A DNA stretch of 64,000 nt, taken from sequence record OQ067374.1. One strand, given 5' to 3'. Under the pieces are notes generated by a model, which ran no database searches, was not told the DNA's origin, and worked only from the letters and a program-made list of their open reading frames with translations. Positions 2,345-50,666 of the stretch are shown piece by piece. Source of the stretch: Escherichia phage a20. The translations under genes and the position numbers were made by a program. Numbering within the stretch: position 1 is the first letter of the stretch; each line of letters opens with the position of its first letter.

Positions 2345-4327
2345 ATGTCACTTCTCTCTCCGGGCGTTGAGCTCAAAGAAACTACCGTACAGAGTACTGT
2401 AGTTAATAACTCCACTGGTACTGCTGCCCTGGCTGGAAAATTCCAATGGGGACCTGCATTCCAGATTAAACAAATCACTGATGAAGTTGCATTAGTTGAT
2501 ATGTTTGGTACTCCTAATACGGATACAGCAGATTATTTCATGTCTGCTATGAACTTCCTTCAATATGGTAATGACCTTCGTGTTGTACGCGCAGTTGACC
2601 GTGATACTGCTAAGAACTCATCTCCTGTAGCAGGCAATATTGAATTCACAATCTCTGCTGCTGGTAGTAACTATGCAGTTGGTGATAAAATTATCGTTAA
2701 GTATTTGACCGAAACTGTTGAAGCAGATGGTTATGTCACTTCAGTTGATGTCGATGGTAAAATTCTTAGCATTTATATCCCAACCGGTAAAATTATTGCT
2801 CGTGCAAAAGAAATTAATGAATATCCGGCATTGGGTTCTAACTGGACCGCCGAAGTTGCCAGTTCTTCTTCTGGACTCTCTGGCGTTATTACAATTGGTT
2901 CTATCGTAACCGATTCGGGTATTCTGTTAACTGAAGTTGAAACTTCTGAAGAAGCTATTACTTCTCTAACTTTCCAAGAATCTATTAAAAAATATGGTGT
3001 CCCAGGCGTAGTTGCTCTTTATCCTGGTGAACTTGGCGACCAGCTCGAAATTGAAATCGTATCTAAAGCAGACTATGACAAAGGTGCTTCAGCCCAGTTA
3101 AAAATTTATCCTGATGGTGGTACTCGCGCATCTACTGCTAAAGCAATCTTTGGGTATGGCCCACAAACTGATGACCAATATGCAATTATCGTTCGTCGTA
3201 ACGATGCTGTAGTCCAGAGTGTAGTTCTTTCTACTAAACGCGGTGAACGCGATATTTATGGTAGTAATATCTTTATTGATGATTTCTTTGCTAAAGGCGC
3301 AAGCAATTATATTTTCGCTACTGCACAAGGTTGGCCAAAAGGTTTCTCTGGCGTAATCAAACTGGGCGGTGGCTTATCATCTAATGAAACGGTTGACGCT
3401 GGTGATTTAATGGAAGCTTGGGATTTGTTTGCTGACCGCGAATCTGTTAATGCGCAGTTGTTTATTGCTGGTTCTTGTGCAGGTGAATCTTTAGAAGTTG
3501 CTTCTACAGTTCAGAAACATGTTGTAGCAATTGGTGATTCTCGCCAAGATTGCTTGGTTCTTTGCTCACCGCCACGTGCAACTATAGTCGGTATTCCTGT
3601 TAATCGTGCAGTTGATAATCTGGTTGATTGGCGTACTGCGTCAGGAACTTACACTGATAATAACTTTAATGTAAGTTCTACTTATGCTGCTATTGACGGT
3701 AACTATAAATATCAATATGATAAATATAATGATGTGAATCGTTGGGTTCCATTAGCTGCTGATATTGCCGGTCTTTGTGCTCGCACAGACAATATTTCTC
3801 AGCCTTGGATGTCTCCTGCCGGTTATAACCGTGGACAAATTCTTAACGTTATTAAGCTTGCAATTGAAACTCGTCAACCACAGCGTGATCGTTTGTATCA
3901 GGAAGCTATTAACCCTGTTACTGGTACCGGTGGTGATGGGTATGTTCTGTACGGCGATAAAACTGCCACTTCTGTTCCTTCACCATTTGACCGTATTAAC
4001 GTTCGTCGTTTGTTCAATATGGTTAAAACGAACATTGGTTCAGCATCTAAATATCGTCTGTTTGAATTGAACAACGCATTTACCCGTTCTTCTTTCCGTA
4101 CAGAGACTTCTCAATATCTACAGGGTATTAAAGCTCTTGGTGGTGTATATAACTTTAAAGTTGTTTGTGATACTACCAATAACACTCCAGCAGTTATCGA
4201 CCGTAATGAATTTGTAGCTACTTTCTACTTACAACCTGCCCGCTCGATAAATTATATTACGTTGAACTTTGTAGCAACAGCAACTGGTGCCGATTTCGAC
4301 GAACTGATTGGTGCTGTAGGTGGTTAA
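2345..4327 (+). CDS. 18: contractile tail sheath protein gp18
   Basis: 660 aa (T4 gp18 is about 659); begins MSLLSPGVELKETTV; late promoter TATAAATA upstream. Confidence 0.96.
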   Translation: MSLLSPGVELKETTVQSTVVNNSTGTAALAGKFQWGPAFQIKQITDEVALVDMFGTPNTDTADYFMSAMNFLQYGNDLRVVRAVDRDTAKNSSPVAGNIEFTISAAGSNYAVGDKIIVKYLTETVEADGYVTSVDVDGKILSIYIPTGKIIARAKEINEYPALGSNWTAEVASSSSGLSGVITIGSIVTDSGILLTEVETSEEAITSLTFQESIKKYGVPGVVALYPGELGDQLEIEIVSKADYDKGASAQLKIYPDGGTRASTAKAIFGYGPQTDDQYAIIVRRNDAVVQSVVLSTKRGERDIYGSNIFIDDFFAKGASNYIFATAQGWPKGFSGVIKLGGGLSSNETVDAGDLMEAWDLFADRESVNAQLFIAGSCAGESLEVASTVQKHVVAIGDSRQDCLVLCSPPRATIVGIPVNRAVDNLVDWRTASGTYTDNNFNVSSTYAAIDGNYKYQYDKYNDVNRWVPLAADIAGLCARTDNISQPWMSPAGYNRGQILNVIKLAIETRQPQRDRLYQEAINPVTGTGGDGYVLYGDKTATSVPSPFDRINVRRLFNMVKTNIGSASKYRLFELNNAFTRSSFRTETSQYLQGIKALGGVYNFKVVCDTTNNTPAVIDRNEFVATFYLQPARSINYITLNFVATATGADFDELIGAVGG

Positions 4328-40801: not shown

Positions 40802-41935
<1,134 letters not shown>

Positions 41936-41982: not shown

Positions 41983-42393
41983 CTACTTTTTCTTATGTTG
42001 GATATTCCAAGGCGGGTTGAACTTTTTGATAAAAAGTGGTTCTTCAAGGTCCATTGTTGCGATGGTCATTGAACCAAGTTCGTTGGTGACTGAAAGGTCA
42101 AAACATTGGCGGGCCCAGAATTCAACCTTTTTGCCTTGCATTAAGGCATCCAAAATCATAAGTGATTTTCTTGAATCTGAAGTCTGGTCTTTTCGATTTA
42201 TGGCTGTTCGATAATAGTTAATGCGTTTCTTTAAATTCTTGGTTTTACCAATATACACAAGTTCGTCATCTATAGCAATAGCGTATATGACATTTTTCTT
42301 ATTAGGGACATCAACTGTTTTAATTGTTGCATCTTCTAATAGCTCCAATTCTGTATATTTAATAAAGGAATATTCGGCGGCAATATCTTTCAT
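41983..42393 (-). CDS. denA: endonuclease II (DenA)
   Basis: 136 aa, same length as T4 DenA; VIYAIAIDDELVYIGKTKNL. Confidence 0.93.
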   Translation of the reverse strand: MKDIAAEYSFIKYTELELLEDATIKTVDVPNKKNVIYAIAIDDELVYIGKTKNLKKRINYYRTAINRKDQTSDSRKSLMILDALMQGKKVEFWARQCFDLSVTNELGSMTIATMDLEEPLFIKKFNPPWNIQHKKK

Positions 42394-42419: not shown

Positions 42420-42922
42420 TTAGAAATATTTTTTGTATGAATTGATTACATTTTGGTCTACATCATTATCAATTTGTGCGACAAGATAAGAACTGATTTC
42501 AACTTCCTGAGGAGCGGCTTGAACTAAATCAGAGTTCAGATATTCACGAATCCAAGGATACGGATGCTTGGTCGGAGCATCAGTGATTGGGCATGGCAAA
42601 CCACACTGTTTCATACGAGACACAGTCAAGTAATCAACAAAAGCACACATACTCTGCGTATTGATACCTGGACATGTACCGTCTTTAAAGAGGTGTGCAG
42701 CCCATTCCTTCTCTTGACTATTTACTTCCATAAAAATGTCAACTGCTTCTTGTTCACATTCTTTAGCAATTTGAACCCACTCATCACCATCAGTACCAGA
42801 TTGAAGTTGACGGATAATGTACTGAGTACCCTTGAGGTGGAGTTGTTCGTCACGAGCAATGAACTTCATAATCTTTGCATTACCTTCCATAATTTCCATA
42901 TTTTTATGGAAGTTAAAGGTAC
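42420..42922 (-). CDS. nrdB: ribonucleotide reductase small subunit NrdB, exon 2
   Basis: Reading frame aligns with R2 C-terminal half (NMEIMEGNAKI..IARDEQLHLKGTQ; E. coli LMEGNAKII..IARDEALHLTGTQ); 3' splice site placed after intron-terminal G at 42923 (inferred). Confidence 0.85.
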
Positions 42923-44012
42923 CGTATGTTCGATTGAGCTCGCTAATTCTCAACCCGTTCTCTTATGAACTGCTGCATGTTACCATGCAGTCCAGACTAT
43001 ATCACAATCCCGGAGGGATTCTCCCCATTTCGAGTCGCTTGACCCTACGTCCGAAGACTAGTCGTTGAACCTTGTTTTGCAATTGTCGCCGTGCCATCGT
43101 TTATATGTTGATGGTGATAAATCTTTCTTATCACAATATGGACAATTCAATTGAATTCTATTTGGATTTAATTTACATCTGTCATTATGTTTTAGATAAA
43201 ATCCAGGACCTTTACCAATGTGACCACAAAAATCACATGTGATTTCTTTTTGTGCAGGATGGGTCCCGTTCTTAACCATTTCTAATGTTTTTGCTGATGT
43301 TCTTTTCTTATGGTCTTCTGATAAGAAATGATGTGAACCGTCATTTACCCGTTTTGATTGAGTTTCTGACTGCATTTTACCACCGCAAAATACATGAGTA
43401 CCTTCTTTTATAGCTGCAATATTGCGTTCTTTAACTTTTGCAATATGCTCAGCTTGTTGAAAATTATGTATACCTAATGCAACTCTATTTAAATTAGATT
43501 TACGCTGTATTTCACCATCTAAAAGATGAAATGTACCATTTTCTATCTTAGATTTAATAGAGGCAATATTTTTAGCTCGTACTTCAGGGATATTAAAAAT
43601 CTGGATTTCTCTAGATTTTGCGGCTTTAGAAGCTAATTCAGAAATTTCTTCAGGAGAATATTTCATTCTAAGCTTTATAGCATGACAAGCCTGGTAATCT
43701 TTTTGAGCTAAATGTATATCATAATGTTCCTGTATAGAAAGGCACATCAAATTATCTAAATCATTATTTTCACGGTTACCGTCTTTATGATGGATTTCGT
43801 ATGTTCTTCCATCAGAATCTTTAGGTATAGGTCCGTTAGCATCTATCCAAATTTTTCTATAGTTCAATTGTGCATCCTCTTAAAAGTATAATCATATTTA
43901 TATTATACTAATTAAAGGTGCAAGCAAAACCTTGGCTGCTAGTTTTCCTATAAAGGACTTTCCAGCAATTAAAGGAGTTTTCGATAAACGTTACCGTTTA
44001 AAGGCGCATTTT
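42923..44012 (-). mobile_element. group I intron in nrdB (about 1090 nt) carrying an I-TevIII-like HNH homing endonuclease ORF
   Basis: nrdB reading frame is interrupted by in-frame TAA right after ...EAIRFYVSFA and resumes about 1.1 kb downstream; intron 3' region has GTTCAACGACTAGTC and TAGGGTCAAGCGACTCGAAA elements paralleling the td intron; boundaries inferred. Confidence 0.8.
43058..43867 (-). CDS. intron-encoded HNH homing endonuclease (I-TevIII-like, full length)
   Basis: 269 aa; HNH motif EIHHKDGNRENNDLDNLM; Cys-rich C-terminal zinc-finger-like region; apparent TTG start 7 nt after SD AAGAGGA. Confidence 0.85.
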   Translation of the reverse strand: MNYRKIWIDANGPIPKDSDGRTYEIHHKDGNRENNDLDNLMCLSIQEHYDIHLAQKDYQACHAIKLRMKYSPEEISELASKAAKSREIQIFNIPEVRAKNIASIKSKIENGTFHLLDGEIQRKSNLNRVALGIHNFQQAEHIAKVKERNIAAIKEGTHVFCGGKMQSETQSKRVNDGSHHFLSEDHKKRTSAKTLEMVKNGTHPAQKEITCDFCGHIGKGPGFYLKHNDRCKLNPNRIQLNCPYCDKKDLSPSTYKRWHGDNCKTRFND

Positions 44013-44688
44013 ACGCAAAAGATACATAAAAACGAATAGCTTCTAAGGCATTAATAACGTGCAAACAGAGGTAAAGAGATTTCATTAAAGCACGTTTAGC
44101 TTCGGCTTCTTGTTTAATAGCTCGGTTTAAACGAAAGTCGGCATCAGGAGATTCTTTAGCTAATTCTACAAATTCTTTAGCATTTTCCCAATAACGAGTT
44201 TTAACCAGAACATCATCGTAATAGCGACCAATAGATTCAGCTCGTTTCATGATTGCTTCGTCTAATACAATCTCATCAAATACCTTAGATGGGTCCGTAT
44301 AAAGATTTCGCATAATATGAGTATACGAACGAGAGTGAATAGTTTCACTGAATGTCCATGTTGCAACCCACGTATCTAATGAAGGGTCGGAAATCAGTGC
44401 CATAAGTACCGCAGATGGGGCCCTGCCTTGGATAGAATCTAATAATGATTGATACTTAAGATTGTTTGTAAAGATGTCCTGTTGGAACTGAGGAAGCTTA
44501 TTGAACTGCGCAGAGTCCAACATCAAGTTTACCTCTTCTGGGCGCCAGAAAAACGACAATTGCTTTTCAATAAGTTCTTCAAAAACTTTATGTCGCTGAA
44601 TATCATAACGTGCGAGGCCAAGACCAGAACCAAAGAACATTGGTTCATTCAAAACATCGACTTGTTGTGTGTTAAAAACTGTACTCAT
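44013..44688 (-). CDS. nrdB: ribonucleotide reductase small subunit NrdB, exon 1
   Basis: N-terminal half of R2 (FSETIHSRSYTHI, EAIRFYVSFA) as in E. coli and T4 NrdB. Confidence 0.9.
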
Positions 44689-44743
44689 TATATTTTCTCA
44701 CTTAGTTATTAACTCATCCATGAGTAAATTATAATCAAAAGTC

Positions 44744-47008
44744 TTAAAGCTTACAAGCAGAACAATCTTCAGCTTTAGGTGTTTCTAATTCATAGTCATC
44801 TGTACCTGACCCATCACGAGTGTTATGATAGTAGAGGTTTTTTCCGCCAAAGTACCAGAAGTAAAGCAGATCGTCAAGCATTACTGACATTGGCACTTTA
44901 CCTTTCTCAAATACTGCAGGGTCATAGTAAGTATTAGCAGAAGCAGATTGGCACACCCATTTCAACATGATAGCAACTTGGGTCAAATAAGGTTTATTAC
45001 CTTTCTTAGCAAGTTTCCACGCATAATCGTAAAGACTCATGTTATGTTCGATATTAGGAACAACCTGACGGAAGTTGCCTTCTTTAGATTCTTTAATACT
45101 TACTGGACCACGTGGGGGCTCAATCCCGTTTGTAGAGTTTGATACTTGACTGCTTGACTCACAAGGCATGAGTGCAGACAACGTTGAGTTACGAATTCCA
45201 TGTTCTTTGAGTTCAGCTCGAAGTTCTTCCCAGTCACATACGTAGTTCGGGGCTGCGATTTGGTCAATCTTTTTATTGTACCAGTCGATAGGTAATTCGC
45301 CTCTAGACCATTTAGTGTCTGAATAATACTCGCAACATCCTTTTTCTTTGGCGAGTTTGATTGATGCTTTGATAAGGCCATATTGCAATCTCTCAAACAA
45401 TTCATGAGTCAAATCGTTAGCGTCTTCATATGAAGCAAAGTTAGAAGCTAACCATGCAGCATAGTTCGTAACACCAACACCAAGATTACGACGCTTTTTA
45501 GCTTTTAAAGCTTCTGGAACCGGATAATCCTGATAGTCTAACAGGTTATCAAGTGCACGTACTTGTACTTCAGCAAGTTCATTAATTTTATCTTGGTCTT
45601 GCCAATCAAATTTATCCAATACAAAAGCAGATAATGTGCATAAACCAATTTCAGCATCAGGACCATTCACATCATTAGTTGGAATAGCGATTTCACAACA
45701 TAAGTTACTCTGACGAATTGGAGCTTTTTCACGAATAAACGGAGTGTAGTTATTCGTGTTATCAACAAACTGTGGATAAATTCGAGCAGTACCAGAACGT
45801 TCAGTCATGAACAATTCAAAGAGTTCTAGTGCTTTGATTCTTTTCTTTCTGATTGTTGGGTCTTTTTCAGCTTTCTCATAAAGCTCACGGAATTTATCTT
45901 GATCTTCAAAGAATGAGTAATATAGTTCGCCTGACATTTCGTGAGGGCTAAATAAAGTAATATAATCATTTTTACCAAGGCGTTCCATCATAAGGTCATT
46001 AATCTGAATTCCGTAGTCCATATGTCGAATACGGTTTTCATCCACGCCTTTGTTATTTTTCAGAACTAATAGGTTCTCTACTTCTAAGTGCCACATCGGA
46101 TAATACGCTGTAGCAGCACCACCACGAATACCACCTTGAGAACAAGATTTTACTGCAGTTTGGAAATGTTTCCAGAATGGAATAACACCCGTATGTCGAA
46201 CTTCACCCATACCGATCTTAGAACCTTCTGCACGAAGCATACCAACGTTGATACCAATACCAGCTCGTTTAGAAATATATTCAATAATTGATGCTGAAGT
46301 TTTGTTAATAGATTTTAACGAATCACCGGCTTCAATAACTACACAACTAGAGAACTGGCGAGTCGGAGTACGAGCACCTGCCATAATTGGAGTAGGCAAT
46401 GAAACTTGATGAGTAGAAACGGCGTCATAAAAACGAATAATATGTTTCAAACGGTCATGAGTTTCGTCTTGGTGTAAGGCCATGCCAATAGCCATGATAG
46501 CAAACTGTGGAGTTTCATAAATCTTCCCGGTTGTTTTATCTTTAACTAGATATTTTTCTTTAAGCTGCATAGCACCAGCATAAGTCAGGTCAAAGTCTCG
46601 TTCATGTTTAATCTGTGAATCGAGATAAATGATTTCTTCTGCTGAATATTGAGACAACAGCTCAGGGTCATATTTGCCTTCATTAACACAATAAGAAATA
46701 TGGTCGATAAAAGCAGGCGGTTCAAACTGCCCATATACATCTTTACGAAGTGCAAACATTAGCCCTTTGGCGGCGACATACTGATAATCAGGTTCTTCGA
46801 CAGAAATCGAGTTAGCTGCAACTTTAATACAAATCTTCTGGATATCTTTGGTGCTCATCCCATCGACAAGATGGGTCTTAATTTCTTCGTACAATTCATA
46901 TGGGTCAATTTGTGTTCCTTCACATTGCCAAGTTAAGACTTGAATAATTTTCTGTGCATCAAAATTTTGGGATACACCTGAATTTTTCACTACTTTAAAA
47001 TTATACAT
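44744..47008 (-). CDS. nrdA: ribonucleotide reductase large subunit NrdA
   Basis: 754 aa, same length as T4 NrdA; class Ia RNR with conserved catalytic NLCxE segment. Confidence 0.96.
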   Translation of the reverse strand: MYNFKVVKNSGVSQNFDAQKIIQVLTWQCEGTQIDPYELYEEIKTHLVDGMSTKDIQKICIKVAANSISVEEPDYQYVAAKGLMFALRKDVYGQFEPPAFIDHISYCVNEGKYDPELLSQYSAEEIIYLDSQIKHERDFDLTYAGAMQLKEKYLVKDKTTGKIYETPQFAIMAIGMALHQDETHDRLKHIIRFYDAVSTHQVSLPTPIMAGARTPTRQFSSCVVIEAGDSLKSINKTSASIIEYISKRAGIGINVGMLRAEGSKIGMGEVRHTGVIPFWKHFQTAVKSCSQGGIRGGAATAYYPMWHLEVENLLVLKNNKGVDENRIRHMDYGIQINDLMMERLGKNDYITLFSPHEMSGELYYSFFEDQDKFRELYEKAEKDPTIRKKRIKALELFELFMTERSGTARIYPQFVDNTNNYTPFIREKAPIRQSNLCCEIAIPTNDVNGPDAEIGLCTLSAFVLDKFDWQDQDKINELAEVQVRALDNLLDYQDYPVPEALKAKKRRNLGVGVTNYAAWLASNFASYEDANDLTHELFERLQYGLIKASIKLAKEKGCCEYYSDTKWSRGELPIDWYNKKIDQIAAPNYVCDWEELRAELKEHGIRNSTLSALMPCESSSQVSNSTNGIEPPRGPVSIKESKEGNFRQVVPNIEHNMSLYDYAWKLAKKGNKPYLTQVAIMLKWVCQSASANTYYDPAVFEKGKVPMSVMLDDLLYFWYFGGKNLYYHNTRDGSGTDDYELETPKAEDCSACKL

Positions 47009-47648
47009 AATAATTCCATGTTGGATAATTTGATGATTTTAGACGGCGTCTAACCGTTTGGGTGCTCATAGATAAAATTATTGACGCTTCATTTAATGTA
47101 TCATATATTACGTCGTTTATAATTACTTTCTTTGCAAATGGATTCTTAGCTCCTATCATAGCATTAGAAATAGCTTGCTTAGTTGATTCTTTTAATGGGA
47201 CTCCTTTAGAAATTTTTGATTTAATTTTTATATTGTATTGTCCACGTTTTTTACCTAATAAAGAATTTCGTATCTTTTCTTTAGTCTCTTCAGATTTAAC
47301 ATGTCCTAGTTTGGAACGAGATATTTTATCTTTTGTTTTTTGGTCTAATTTTCGCCCTTTAAGCAAATCAACCATTTTTGCTCTAGTCCATCCAAATTCT
47401 TTATTATTTCTAGAACTCATTAAATTAACCGCGGTTGCTAAACCTAAATTGTTCGGATATATTTTTAATAAAAGAAGATGAGCCAAATAATGTTCTGAAT
47501 ATGTTAATTTAACTAGATTGTATGACTCATTGGTGCCACCTAAACATTTTGGGATTATATGATGCCATTCACCATCTATATCTTCAAAATTTCTTTCTTT
47601 ATTTACCAAGTTTTTATATATTTTTAAATAATCCATAGTATAATCCAC
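47001..47648 (-). CDS. free-standing HNH homing endonuclease
   Basis: 215 aa; HNH core GEWHHIIPKCLGGTNESYNLVKLTYSEHYLAH; C-terminal SxxxKxKI repeats and HTH-like tail; stop overlaps nrdA start (ATGTATAA). Confidence 0.85.
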   Translation of the reverse strand: MDYTMDYLKIYKNLVNKERNFEDIDGEWHHIIPKCLGGTNESYNLVKLTYSEHYLAHLLLLKIYPNNLGLATAVNLMSSRNNKEFGWTRAKMVDLLKGRKLDQKTKDKISRSKLGHVKSEETKEKIRNSLLGKKRGQYNIKIKSKISKGVPLKESTKQAISNAMIGAKNPFAKKVIINDVIYDTLNEASIILSMSTQTVRRRLKSSNYPTWNYYV

Positions 47649-47966: not shown

Positions 47967-48278
47967 TTATACCGCCATTTTAGCTTTGATAGTTGGATGA
48001 GATTCATAATTTTTAAGAACGAAATCAGAATGTGTCATCGTTCCAGTAACCCAGTCCATTTGGATTTTTGTAGGCCAATTCTCAAAATTACTAGGCCAAT
48101 TAATTTCAAGAGAACACAACTCTTTAGGTTCACGACGAAGAACTTCTTTGCATTGTTCTACATGATTGCTGTAGATATGCGTGTTGCCGCCTGAGAACAC
48201 TAAATCACCTGGGATAAGGTTACACATCTTCGCTACAATATGCGTCAAGGCAGCGTACGAGGCAATGTTGAACGGTAG
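47967..48278 (-). CDS. td: thymidylate synthase, exon 2
   Basis: Encodes LPFNIASYAALTHIVAKMCNL...KAKMAV, the TS C-terminus; 3' splice junction ...CTGAACATAATG|CTACCG matches the T4 td intron. Confidence 0.92.
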   Translation of the reverse strand, partial: LPFNIASYAALTHIVAKMCNLIPGDLVFSGGNTHIYSNHVEQCKEVLRREPKELCSLEINWPSNFENWPTKIQMDWVTGTMTHSDFVLKNYESHPTIKAKMAV

Positions 48279-49294
48279 CATTATGTTCAGATAAGGTCGT
48301 TAATCTTATCCCGGAATTATATCCAGCTGCATGTCACCATGCAGAGCAGACTATATCTCCAACTTGTTAAAGCAAGTTGTCTATCGTTTCGAGTCACTTG
48401 ACCCTACTCCCTAAAGGGATAGTCGTTAGGCATTTATGTAGAACCAATTCCACTTATCAGATTTTACACGGTAAGTAACTAATCCTGATGAAATTTCAAA
48501 ATGTCTAGCCGCATCGGCTGCACATTCAAAAATAATCCCATCGCATGAAATCTTTTTGATGTTAGCTGGCTTTTTGCCTTTCATCTTTTCAGATAGTTTA
48601 GTTTTAGTTTTTTCTGAATGTTTGTGATTAAAGAACGGGTTATTTTCACCTGAACGTTTTCGGCACTTTCCACAAGTATCGGCCGAAGATGGTATGCGAA
48701 CACCGCATTTACAAAACTTGTGGTTTTCTGGATTCCATCGGCCATTTTTACTTCCGTGTTTACCATAAAGAGCTTTCCGACCATCAGGACCAAGCTTAAG
48801 CATCTTAGCTTTAACAGTTTCAGCTCGTTTCTTAGCAATTTCTTCTTTTAATGGATGATTTGAAAGCACATCACCAAAAGACGCATCAGCAATATTATAT
48901 CCATTAATTTTAGAATTTAGCTCTTTAATCCAAAAATTTTCTCGTTCAATAATCAAATCTTTCTCATATGGAATTTCTTCCAGTACAGAGCATTCAAAAA
49001 CATTACCATGTTTATTAAAAGACCTTTGAAATTTTATAGAAGAGTGAACACCGTTTTCAAGGTCTTTAAAATGTCTCTTCCATCTTTTCTCAAAATCTTT
49101 AGCACTTCCAACATACACTTTACCGTTTAAAGTGTTTTTAATCTGATAAATTCCGCTTTTCATAAACACCTCTTTTTATATAGAAGTATTTATTAAAGGG
49201 TAGTCCTACAATTTAGCACGGGATTGTCTACTAGAGAGGTCCCCCGTTTAGATAGATTACAAGTATAAGTCACCTTATACCTAGGCCTAAATTA
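48279..49294 (-). mobile_element. group I intron in td (1016 nt) carrying I-TevI
   Basis: 5' exon ends ...TTAGGT; intron begins TAATTTAGGCCTAGGTATAAGGTGACTTATACTTGTAATC and ends ...AACGACCTTATCTGAACATAATG, as in the T4 td intron; length 1016 nt. Confidence 0.92.
48426..49163 (-). CDS. intron-encoded GIY-YIG homing endonuclease I-TevI
   Basis: 245 aa from MKSGIYQIKNTLNGKVYVGSAKDFEKRW (GIY-YIG motif); Cys4 zinc finger and C-terminal DNA-binding domain. Confidence 0.95.
   Translation of the reverse strand: MKSGIYQIKNTLNGKVYVGSAKDFEKRWKRHFKDLENGVHSSIKFQRSFNKHGNVFECSVLEEIPYEKDLIIERENFWIKELNSKINGYNIADASFGDVLSNHPLKEEIAKKRAETVKAKMLKLGPDGRKALYGKHGSKNGRWNPENHKFCKCGVRIPSSADTCGKCRKRSGENNPFFNHKHSEKTKTKLSEKMKGKKPANIKKISCDGIIFECAADAARHFEISSGLVTYRVKSDKWNWFYINA

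Positions 49295-50666
<1,372 letters not shown>

Follow-up and report, generated by a model that had tools for sequence, protein, structure and literature searches.

The intron in the nrdB gene of the T-even phages, which the literature assigns to subgroup IA2, and the homing endonuclease I-TevIII encoded within it have already been described (Eddy & Gold 1991, as cited in PMC2988022; Robbins et al. 2007, PMC1865063). In phage RB3, I-TevIII cleaves both DNA strands 14/16 bp upstream of the point of intron insertion and produces 2-nt 3′ overhangs. Alanine substitution identified H26, H27, N39 and H48 as residues needed for cleavage, and the C-terminal domain was found to serve in DNA binding and dimerisation, with the zinc-finger cysteines needed for DNA binding (PMC1865063). 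The nrdB intron of T4, described as self-splicing (PMC2790892), is a 598-nt form from which intron positions 210-700 are missing, so that the H-N-H domain is gone, the frame is shifted and a 97-aa remnant is annotated. A more distant point of reference is the T4 td intron with I-TevI, likewise a phage group I intron. It encodes its endonuclease in a peripheral loop and has a late promoter, a hairpin that sequesters the ribosome-binding site (RBS) and a cleavage site upstream of the insertion (PMC2988022). It differs in its host gene, in its ribozyme sequence and in its enzyme, which is of the GIY-YIG and not the H-N-H type.

The nrdB locus of Escherichia phage a20 (OQ067374.1) was analysed in a window of 64,000 nt, the whole stretch of DNA under study. 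It shares with RB3 the gene, the insertion site, an ORF in L6a, the TTG start, the late promoter and the RBS hairpin, and the catalytic and zinc-finger residues of I-TevIII are identical in the two phages. In contrast, 12 nucleotide differences separate the two introns, 7 of them in the 3′ part of the ribozyme where a20 matches T4; the a20 exons are of the Mosigvirus type (82-87% identical to those of RB3), and mobE is missing upstream of nrdB. Compared with T4, the ribozyme is identical save for one nucleotide in the P5 loop, and the splice sites, promoter and hairpin are shared, whereas the a20 ORF is complete. The introns of PD112, SP21535 and DCP80 have the same insertion site and a similar ribozyme core (89-99% identity in two core pieces), but unlike a20 they retain no endonuclease.

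The closest record to the a20 nrdB region is that of NRG-P0074 (PQ480333, Mosigvirus), which shares its gene order and likewise lacks mobE. Identity is 100% for the intron and 99.9% for the whole region over 2301 nt, and only two substitutions in exon 2 set the two regions apart. The a20 element is already known: characterisation of the nrdB intron and of I-TevIII dates back to 1991 and 2007, and GenBank contains an identical intron. It adds little new biology, and the sole addition made here is the footprint of an apparent homing event in a Mosigvirus background that lacks mobE. The analysis also has value for annotation. In the NRG-P0074 record, nrdB is given in two fragments, an 'intron-like DNA endonuclease' is listed as well and an intron feature is missing, and most deposited genomes give two nrdB fragments and a 'homing endonuclease' with no intron.

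The split nrdB gene and its surroundings

The nrdB gene of a20 lies on the minus strand as two exons around a 1090-nt insert (Table 1). The exon-1 ORF (44688..44011) encodes the 225 N-terminal residues of a class Ia ribonucleotide reductase small subunit and ends in ...EAIRFYVSFA, followed by TAA. The reading restarts at 42922 with (C)TFNFHKNMEIMEGNAKI, and the C-terminal ORF ends at 42420. Splice reconstruction by removal of 42923..44012 left 1179 nt, which correspond to 392 codons with 0 internal stops and a junction reading ...RFYVSFA-C-TFNFHK. The spliced gene was colinear, nucleotide for nucleotide over 1179 nt, with the nrdB gene of the intronless Mosigvirus SF. The preliminary description had placed an in-frame TAA directly after ...EAIRFYVSFA and the resumption of the frame about 1090 nt further on, and the reconstruction together with the colinearity to SF showed these coordinates to be exact.

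The same description had taken the splice sites from protein alignment and the rule of an exon-terminal U and an intron-terminal G. Both of these bases were found, the U in a U.G pair in P1, and the boundaries proved unshiftable. The last base of exon 1 is T against a G at the end of the intron, and the first base of the intron is A against a G at the start of exon 2. As the bases differ across both boundaries, no shifted pair of sites yields an identical product, and ambiguity of the splice sites was ruled out on this ground. The junction sequences, TCTTTTGCGT/AAAATGCGCC at the 5′ site and ACG/GTACC at the 3′ site (slashes mark the boundaries), are common to T4, RB3, S16, HY03, PD112, FL31, NRG-P0074 and others. 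The insertion point is a Cys codon of nrdB (...VSFA-C-TFNF...) and matches that of the T-even nrdB intron lineage. Approximately 84 of the 639 phage records that match the spliced nrdB hold at least 80% of the 1090-nt insert, which excludes chance as its origin. In approximately 42 further records, both core halves occur close together, representing shortened or ORF-less forms.

The arrangement of nrdA, nrdB, denA and rnlA follows the T-even gene order. A second split gene, td, lies nearby with an I-TevI-like ORF in its insert, which is presumably the td group I intron. For the free-standing 211-aa ORF at the start of nrdA, the Pfam matches all stayed below threshold (I-TevI DNA-binding domain, 25 bits against a cutoff of 27; NUMOD3), and the search revealed no catalytic domain.

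Table 1. Features of the a20 nrdB region and neighbouring genes, in window coordinates.
Feature	Position	Strand	Description	Basis
td (thymidylate synthase), split	49843..49292 and 48281..47967	minus	about 4 kb from the nrdB intron	
I-TevI-like ORF	49163..48426	minus	245 aa	GIY-YIG 1.4e-16; I-TevI zinc finger 1.8e-17; I-TevI DNA-binding domain 1.9e-31
Free-standing ORF	47001..47636	minus	211 aa; overlaps nrdA start by 8 nt	annotated as homing endonuclease in NRG-P0074
nrdA	47008..44744	minus	flanks nrdB	
nrdB exon 1	44688..44013	minus	676 nt; last base is the U pairing in P1	ORF list, splice reconstruction, alignment to T4/RB3/SF nrdB
Donor-type (Tequatrovirus) tract, exon 1, candidate co-conversion	44013..44182	minus	170 nt	RB3-type informative sites
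Group I intron (predicted)	44012..42923	minus	1090 nt; 5′ end AAAAUGCGCC, 3′ end ...CAUACG, terminal G	identity to NRG-P0074/RB3/T4, RF00028 partial matches, pair counts
5′ ribozyme half (predicted)	43924..44016	minus	P1, P2, P3 5′ strand, P4, P5, P6/P6a 5′ strands	RF00028 1-132; compensatory changes in P2 (3) and P5 (1)
Operator-like copy of the homing site (putative)	43888..43929	minus	intron 84-125; resembles spliced exon junction; overlaps late promoter	
RBS-sequestering hairpin (predicted)	43871..43922	minus	Shine-Dalgarno AGAGG (43879..43875) pairs with UUUCC upstream of late promoter	
T4 late-promoter box TATAAATA	43895..43902	minus	intron 111-118; upstream of endonuclease ORF	read from sequence
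I-TevIII homing endonuclease gene (predicted)	43867..43058	minus	269 aa, TTG start; intron 146-955, in P6a loop	Pfam HNH_3, RB3 match, pN/pS, helix positions
3′ ribozyme half (predicted)	42923..43080	minus	P6a/P6 3′ strands, P7, P7.1, P7.2, P3 3′ strand, P8, P9, P9.1, P9.2, terminal G	RF00028 alignment; compensatory changes in P7.2, P9, P9.2
Donor-type tract, exon 2, candidate co-conversion	42915..42922	minus	8 nt; next recipient-type site 42903	
nrdB exon 2	42922..42420	minus	503 nt including stop codon	ORF list, splice reconstruction, alignment
denA	42393..41983	minus	GIY-YIG; flanks nrdB	
rnlA	41926..40802	minus		

Identity and fold of the ribozyme

The a20 intron was 100% identical to that of NRG-P0074, 99.8% to that of SHFML-26 and 99.0% to that of RB3. 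Only three differences distinguish it from the T4 intron, namely a 1-nt indel in the P5 loop, the 491-nt ORF deletion of T4 and one substitution within the ORF. Judged from these identities and from the covariation described below, the 1090-nt insert is very probably the full-length version of the group I intron known from nrdB of the T-even phages, in which an intact I-TevIII gene occupies the loop of P6a.

The Rfam covariance model RF00028 has a gathering score of 50 bits. At this threshold no match was obtained in the whole window or in the T4 and RB3 introns, and the td intron of the window was not found either. The absence of a gathering-level match was dismissed as evidence against an intron because the model is interrupted by the 810-nt ORF in L6a, and the threshold is passed by orthologues that lack the ORF (PD112, 68.6 bits; DCP80, 74.1 bits), whose core pieces are 96-99% and 89-94% identical to those of a20, respectively. 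The two halves of the a20 intron matched the model separately, the 3′ half with 35.6 bits (E 4.4e-7) and the 5′ half alone with 23.5 bits (E 1.8e-4; model positions 1-132, with a flag for 3′ truncation). Rfam at default thresholds misses the ORF-bearing copies. Two segments near the 3′ end of the intron, GUUCAACGACUA and GAUAUAGUCU, could be aligned with the consensus of the Rfam model. The group I-like conserved elements that the preliminary description had noted in this part were thus recovered by the covariance search that it had suggested.

Helices P1-P9.2 were written onto an alignment of nine ORF-deleted copies of the nrdB intron. The resulting fold comprised 87 pairs in 16 helices, including the P3/P7 pseudoknot, and 99.7% of the 782 pair cells were standard pairs. 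Compensatory double changes were observed in 8 pairs (three in P2, one each in P5, P7.2 and P9, and two in P9.2), whereas the controls, in which the 3′ partners were slid by 1-3 columns in either direction, gave 0 pairs with compensatory changes. This covariation agrees with the earlier assignment of a group I intron at the T4/RB3 site. Helices P3, P4, P6 and P7 were invariant among the nine copies and speak neither for nor against the fold. In P1, the last four exon nucleotides, GCGU, pair with intron positions 6-9 (G6-C9); the U(-1).G6 wobble at the 5′ splice site is invariant in the 9 copies, and the intron-terminal G is present.

In the proposed splicing pathway, the pre-mRNA would fold into the P1-P9.2 ribozyme, and guanosine-initiated self-splicing would join ...GCGU to GUACC..., restoring the 392-aa NrdB. 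The fold and the in-frame 392-aa product are properties of the a20 sequence itself. The self-splicing chemistry we infer from the T4 intron, whose core differs from that of a20 in a single loop nucleotide.

The core from P7 to P9.2 (42923..43063, minus strand) also showed similarity beyond the T-even phages. Stretches of 50-150 nt that are 70-96% identical to it occur in introns of unrelated phages, including those of Staphylococcus, Bacillus, Pectobacterium, Klebsiella, Vibrio, Yersinia and others, and many of them are unannotated.

The I-TevIII gene and its expression signals

The ORF within the intron, which contains EIHHKDGNRENNDLDNLM, matched Pfam HNH_3 (6e-13; 48.7 bits against a cutoff of 24.8). 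Of its 269 residues, 267 were identical to RB3 I-TevIII as translated from KM606994, which identifies it as a full-length orthologue. The two differences are Y23 in place of D, found also in S16, HY03 and FL31, and T265 in place of A, found also in T4 and HY03. All four of the residues H26, H27, N39 and H48 of the N-terminal H-N-H domain are present. Two zinc fingers of the form CX2CX12-13HX3C span residues 211-231 and 242-263, with C211, C214, C242 and C245 in place. A 269-aa HNH protein with a Cys-rich zinc-finger region and an apparent TTG start had been read from the sequence in the preliminary description, which also stated that T4 has a shorter intron with a truncated, inactive I-TevIII and that a full-length form is reported in RB3. 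Every one of these points held, with both zinc fingers located, the start codon found to be shared and the T4 and RB3 introns showing the lengths expected of them.

TTG is a weak start codon. In a20, it stands behind an AAGAGGA Shine-Dalgarno sequence with 7-nt spacing, an arrangement that recurs in RB3, S16, HY03 and FL31, and on this comparison of sequences the start is a conserved feature. The pN/pS ratio of the ORF ranged from 0.04 to 0.16 across lineages, which indicates continuing purifying selection on the predicted protein. At its 3′ end, 23 nt of the ORF (...KTRFND and the stop codon) double as the 3′ strands of P6a and P6, J6/7 and the 5′ strand of P7. The 3′ end of the ORF is kept even in the ORF-less copies because it is shared with these ribozyme strands. 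A sequence search of the PDB with the ORF gave no meaningful match, that is, no solved relative detectable by sequence.

The intron also contains two short ORFs on the plus strand (43072..43242 and 43285..43413), which were treated as noise. In the GenBank record of NRG-P0074, a 31-aa 'hypothetical protein' (3104..3199 of the compared locus, corresponding to window positions 43002..43097, minus strand) shares sequence with the end of I-TevIII and with the P7-P8 core, and this annotation within the ribozyme most likely reflects an error of gene calling.

Loss of the I-TevIII ORF has occurred repeatedly. At least three independent deletions were identified, each between short direct repeats. The T4 deletion, at the repeat GAAGA[A/C]CAT, is out of frame. 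The deletion in AV109 (Mosigvirus), at the repeat AAGAACAT, is in frame and leaves 101 aa without the H-N-H domain, in which the N-terminal 22 residues are fused to the zinc-finger DNA-binding domain. In PD112, SP21535 and DCP80, the repeat is ACAATTG and intron positions 142-926 are lost, removing nearly the entire ORF. Such serial, independent deletions illustrate the cycle of gain and decay of homing endonuclease genes.

A late promoter upstream of I-TevIII is an arrangement described in PMC2988022, and a corresponding box is present in a20 (Table 1). The hairpin that pairs the Shine-Dalgarno sequence has a folding energy of -14.9 kcal/mol (z -3.36), whereas the leader of the late transcript, at -1 kcal/mol, is essentially unstructured. 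The hairpin can form solely on the read-through pre-mRNA and not on a transcript from the late promoter. Its outer stem is conserved in the 9 copies, with one G.U change. In early and middle read-through transcripts, the hairpin would lock the ribosome-binding site of I-TevIII. Late in infection, RNA from the internal TATAAATA promoter would lack the 5′ arm, so that the site would be freed and translation could begin at the TTG. The anatomy of these control elements is present in a20, and the regulatory mechanism is carried over, by analogy, from work on the T4 introns.

The stretch resembling the homing site (intron 84-125) gave a local alignment score of 19 with the spliced site, against 9.1 ± 1.8 for shuffled sequences, and 1 of 500 shuffles reached 19. 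It thus matches the operator at which autorepression has been proposed in the literature (PMC2988022).

The late-promoter stretch (43888..43908, minus strand; alignment columns 119-138) was observed to be an indel hot spot among the intron copies. Insertions of 3-8 nt occur there in S16, DCP80, HY03 and AV109, while the hairpin arms around it stay conserved, and the ORF-less copy of SP21535 has lost the TATAAATA box.

A donor-type tract in a Mosigvirus nrdB gene

Identity between a20 and RB3 was 86.6% in exon 1 and 82.2% in exon 2, against 99.0% in the intron. Against the Tequatrovirus SHFML-26, there were 204 differences in the 1179 exon nucleotides and 2 in the 1090 intron nucleotides. Purifying selection was considered as the source of this contrast and ruled out, since the exon differences outside the tract described below are mainly synonymous and selection cannot, therefore, explain it. 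Codons 1-150 differ from those of RB3 in 57 synonymous and 11 non-synonymous codons, and the 810-nt ORF carries 6 differences (4 synonymous, 2 non-synonymous).

Sites at which the intronless Mosigvirus SF and RB3 differ were scored in a20. The obtained results showed that nrdB is SF-type almost throughout, with the exception of 35 consecutive RB3-type sites at spliced positions 507-684 (178 nt). SF-type sites at 498 and 696 delimit this tract, next to which positions 456-498 form a short mosaic zone, and its boundaries were unchanged when SHFML-26 was used for the comparison. The tract is asymmetric, with about 170 nt on the upstream side of the insertion site and 8-19 nt on the downstream side, and it spans the known I-TevIII cleavage site (PMC1865063) in a gene that is otherwise of the Mosigvirus type. 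The left boundary (498/507) is common to three intron-bearing Mosigvirus genomes, namely NRG-P0074, FL31 and AV109. The transfer must, therefore, be ancestral to the divergence of these genomes, and the boundary is silent on present-day activity.

The mosaic itself was observed directly, and a homing event in the a20 lineage appears to account for it, a mechanism that we infer from the literature on homing with exon co-conversion by the RB3 enzyme, which is 99% identical to that of a20. After the cut, repair from an intron-bearing genome would copy the intron together with flanking exon sequence, and a Tequatrovirus-type intron with a 178-nt patch of donor exon would in this way have entered a Mosigvirus-type nrdB. 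The reading that we favour, with moderate confidence, is that the intron homed from Tequatrovirus into a Mosigvirus nrdB by way of cleavage by I-TevIII rather than with the help of mobE, leaving a short asymmetric tract, and that the a20 intron, which combines a T4-type ribozyme with an intact ORF, may stand closer than that of RB3 to the progenitor of the deleted T4 intron. If so, the clean tract in a Mosigvirus without mobE would offer a natural example of the extent of co-conversion in intron homing between phage genera.

A donor-type patch could in principle also arise by ordinary homologous recombination in a mixed infection, without an I-TevIII cut. The intron would be an immobile passenger if its ribozyme works, its I-TevIII allele is inactive or unexpressed and the exon patch stems from such recombination between co-infecting phages, which we regard as unlikely. 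The a20 ORF is of full length and keeps every residue experimentally defined as essential, its promoter, Shine-Dalgarno sequence and hairpin are intact, and the range of pN/pS values indicates that selection on the protein continues across lineages. The tract, moreover, is centred on the I-TevIII cut site, a placement that is not random. What speaks for a passenger is the frequent decay of the endonuclease among copies of the intron (its ORF was deleted independently at least three times, in T4, AV109 and the PD112/DCP80/SP21535 group), the TTG start and the two substitutions relative to the tested RB3 enzyme, and the occurrence of the same transfer in several Mosigvirus genomes, which makes it not very recent. 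The intact, potentially mobile intron of the preliminary description is, on balance, supported by the donor-type tract and by the signs of purifying selection on the ORF.

Trans homing driven by mobE is a further route, in which nrdB is nicked around nucleotides 122-126 by the free-standing endonuclease and the intron is carried along with the repair tract. MobE is known to mobilise the defective nrdB intron of T4 (PMC2790892), and the likely donor group (RB3, S16, HY03 and SHFML-26) has its gene in the interval separating nrdA from nrdB. In a20, however, mobE is missing and the gap between nrdA and nrdB is 55 nt (44689..44743). Codon 42 of the a20 nrdB gene is the MobE-sensitive AAG, and a small patch of RB3 type lies at spliced positions 126-129, but positions 130-450 are recipient-type, so that no unbroken donor tract leads from the MobE nick to the intron. 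AAG at codon 42, at the MobE nick site, is the state reported for phages without mobE, and in published crosses the progeny that inherited the intron also had donor polymorphisms across 5′ nrdB, together with mobE (PMC2790892). With mobE missing and 5′ nrdB recipient-type, this mechanism was rejected as the main route and is considered very improbable.

An assembly or sequencing artefact, or an nrdB pseudogene with an unspliced insertion, as might be read from the in-frame TAA directly after exon 1 and from the two separate nrdB fragments in many GenBank annotations, has a negligible probability given the identical architecture in 84 independent phage records, the perfect in-frame nrdB that the boundaries yield and a ribozyme core that is that of the T4 intron, self-splicing according to PMC2790892.

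Compared with the intron-bearing flanks (44015..44026 and 42915..42918, minus strand), the intronless Mosigvirus SF allele differs at positions -14, -8, -2, +5 and +8 from the insertion site. All five differences are synonymous, and one of them lies at the I-TevIII cleavage position.
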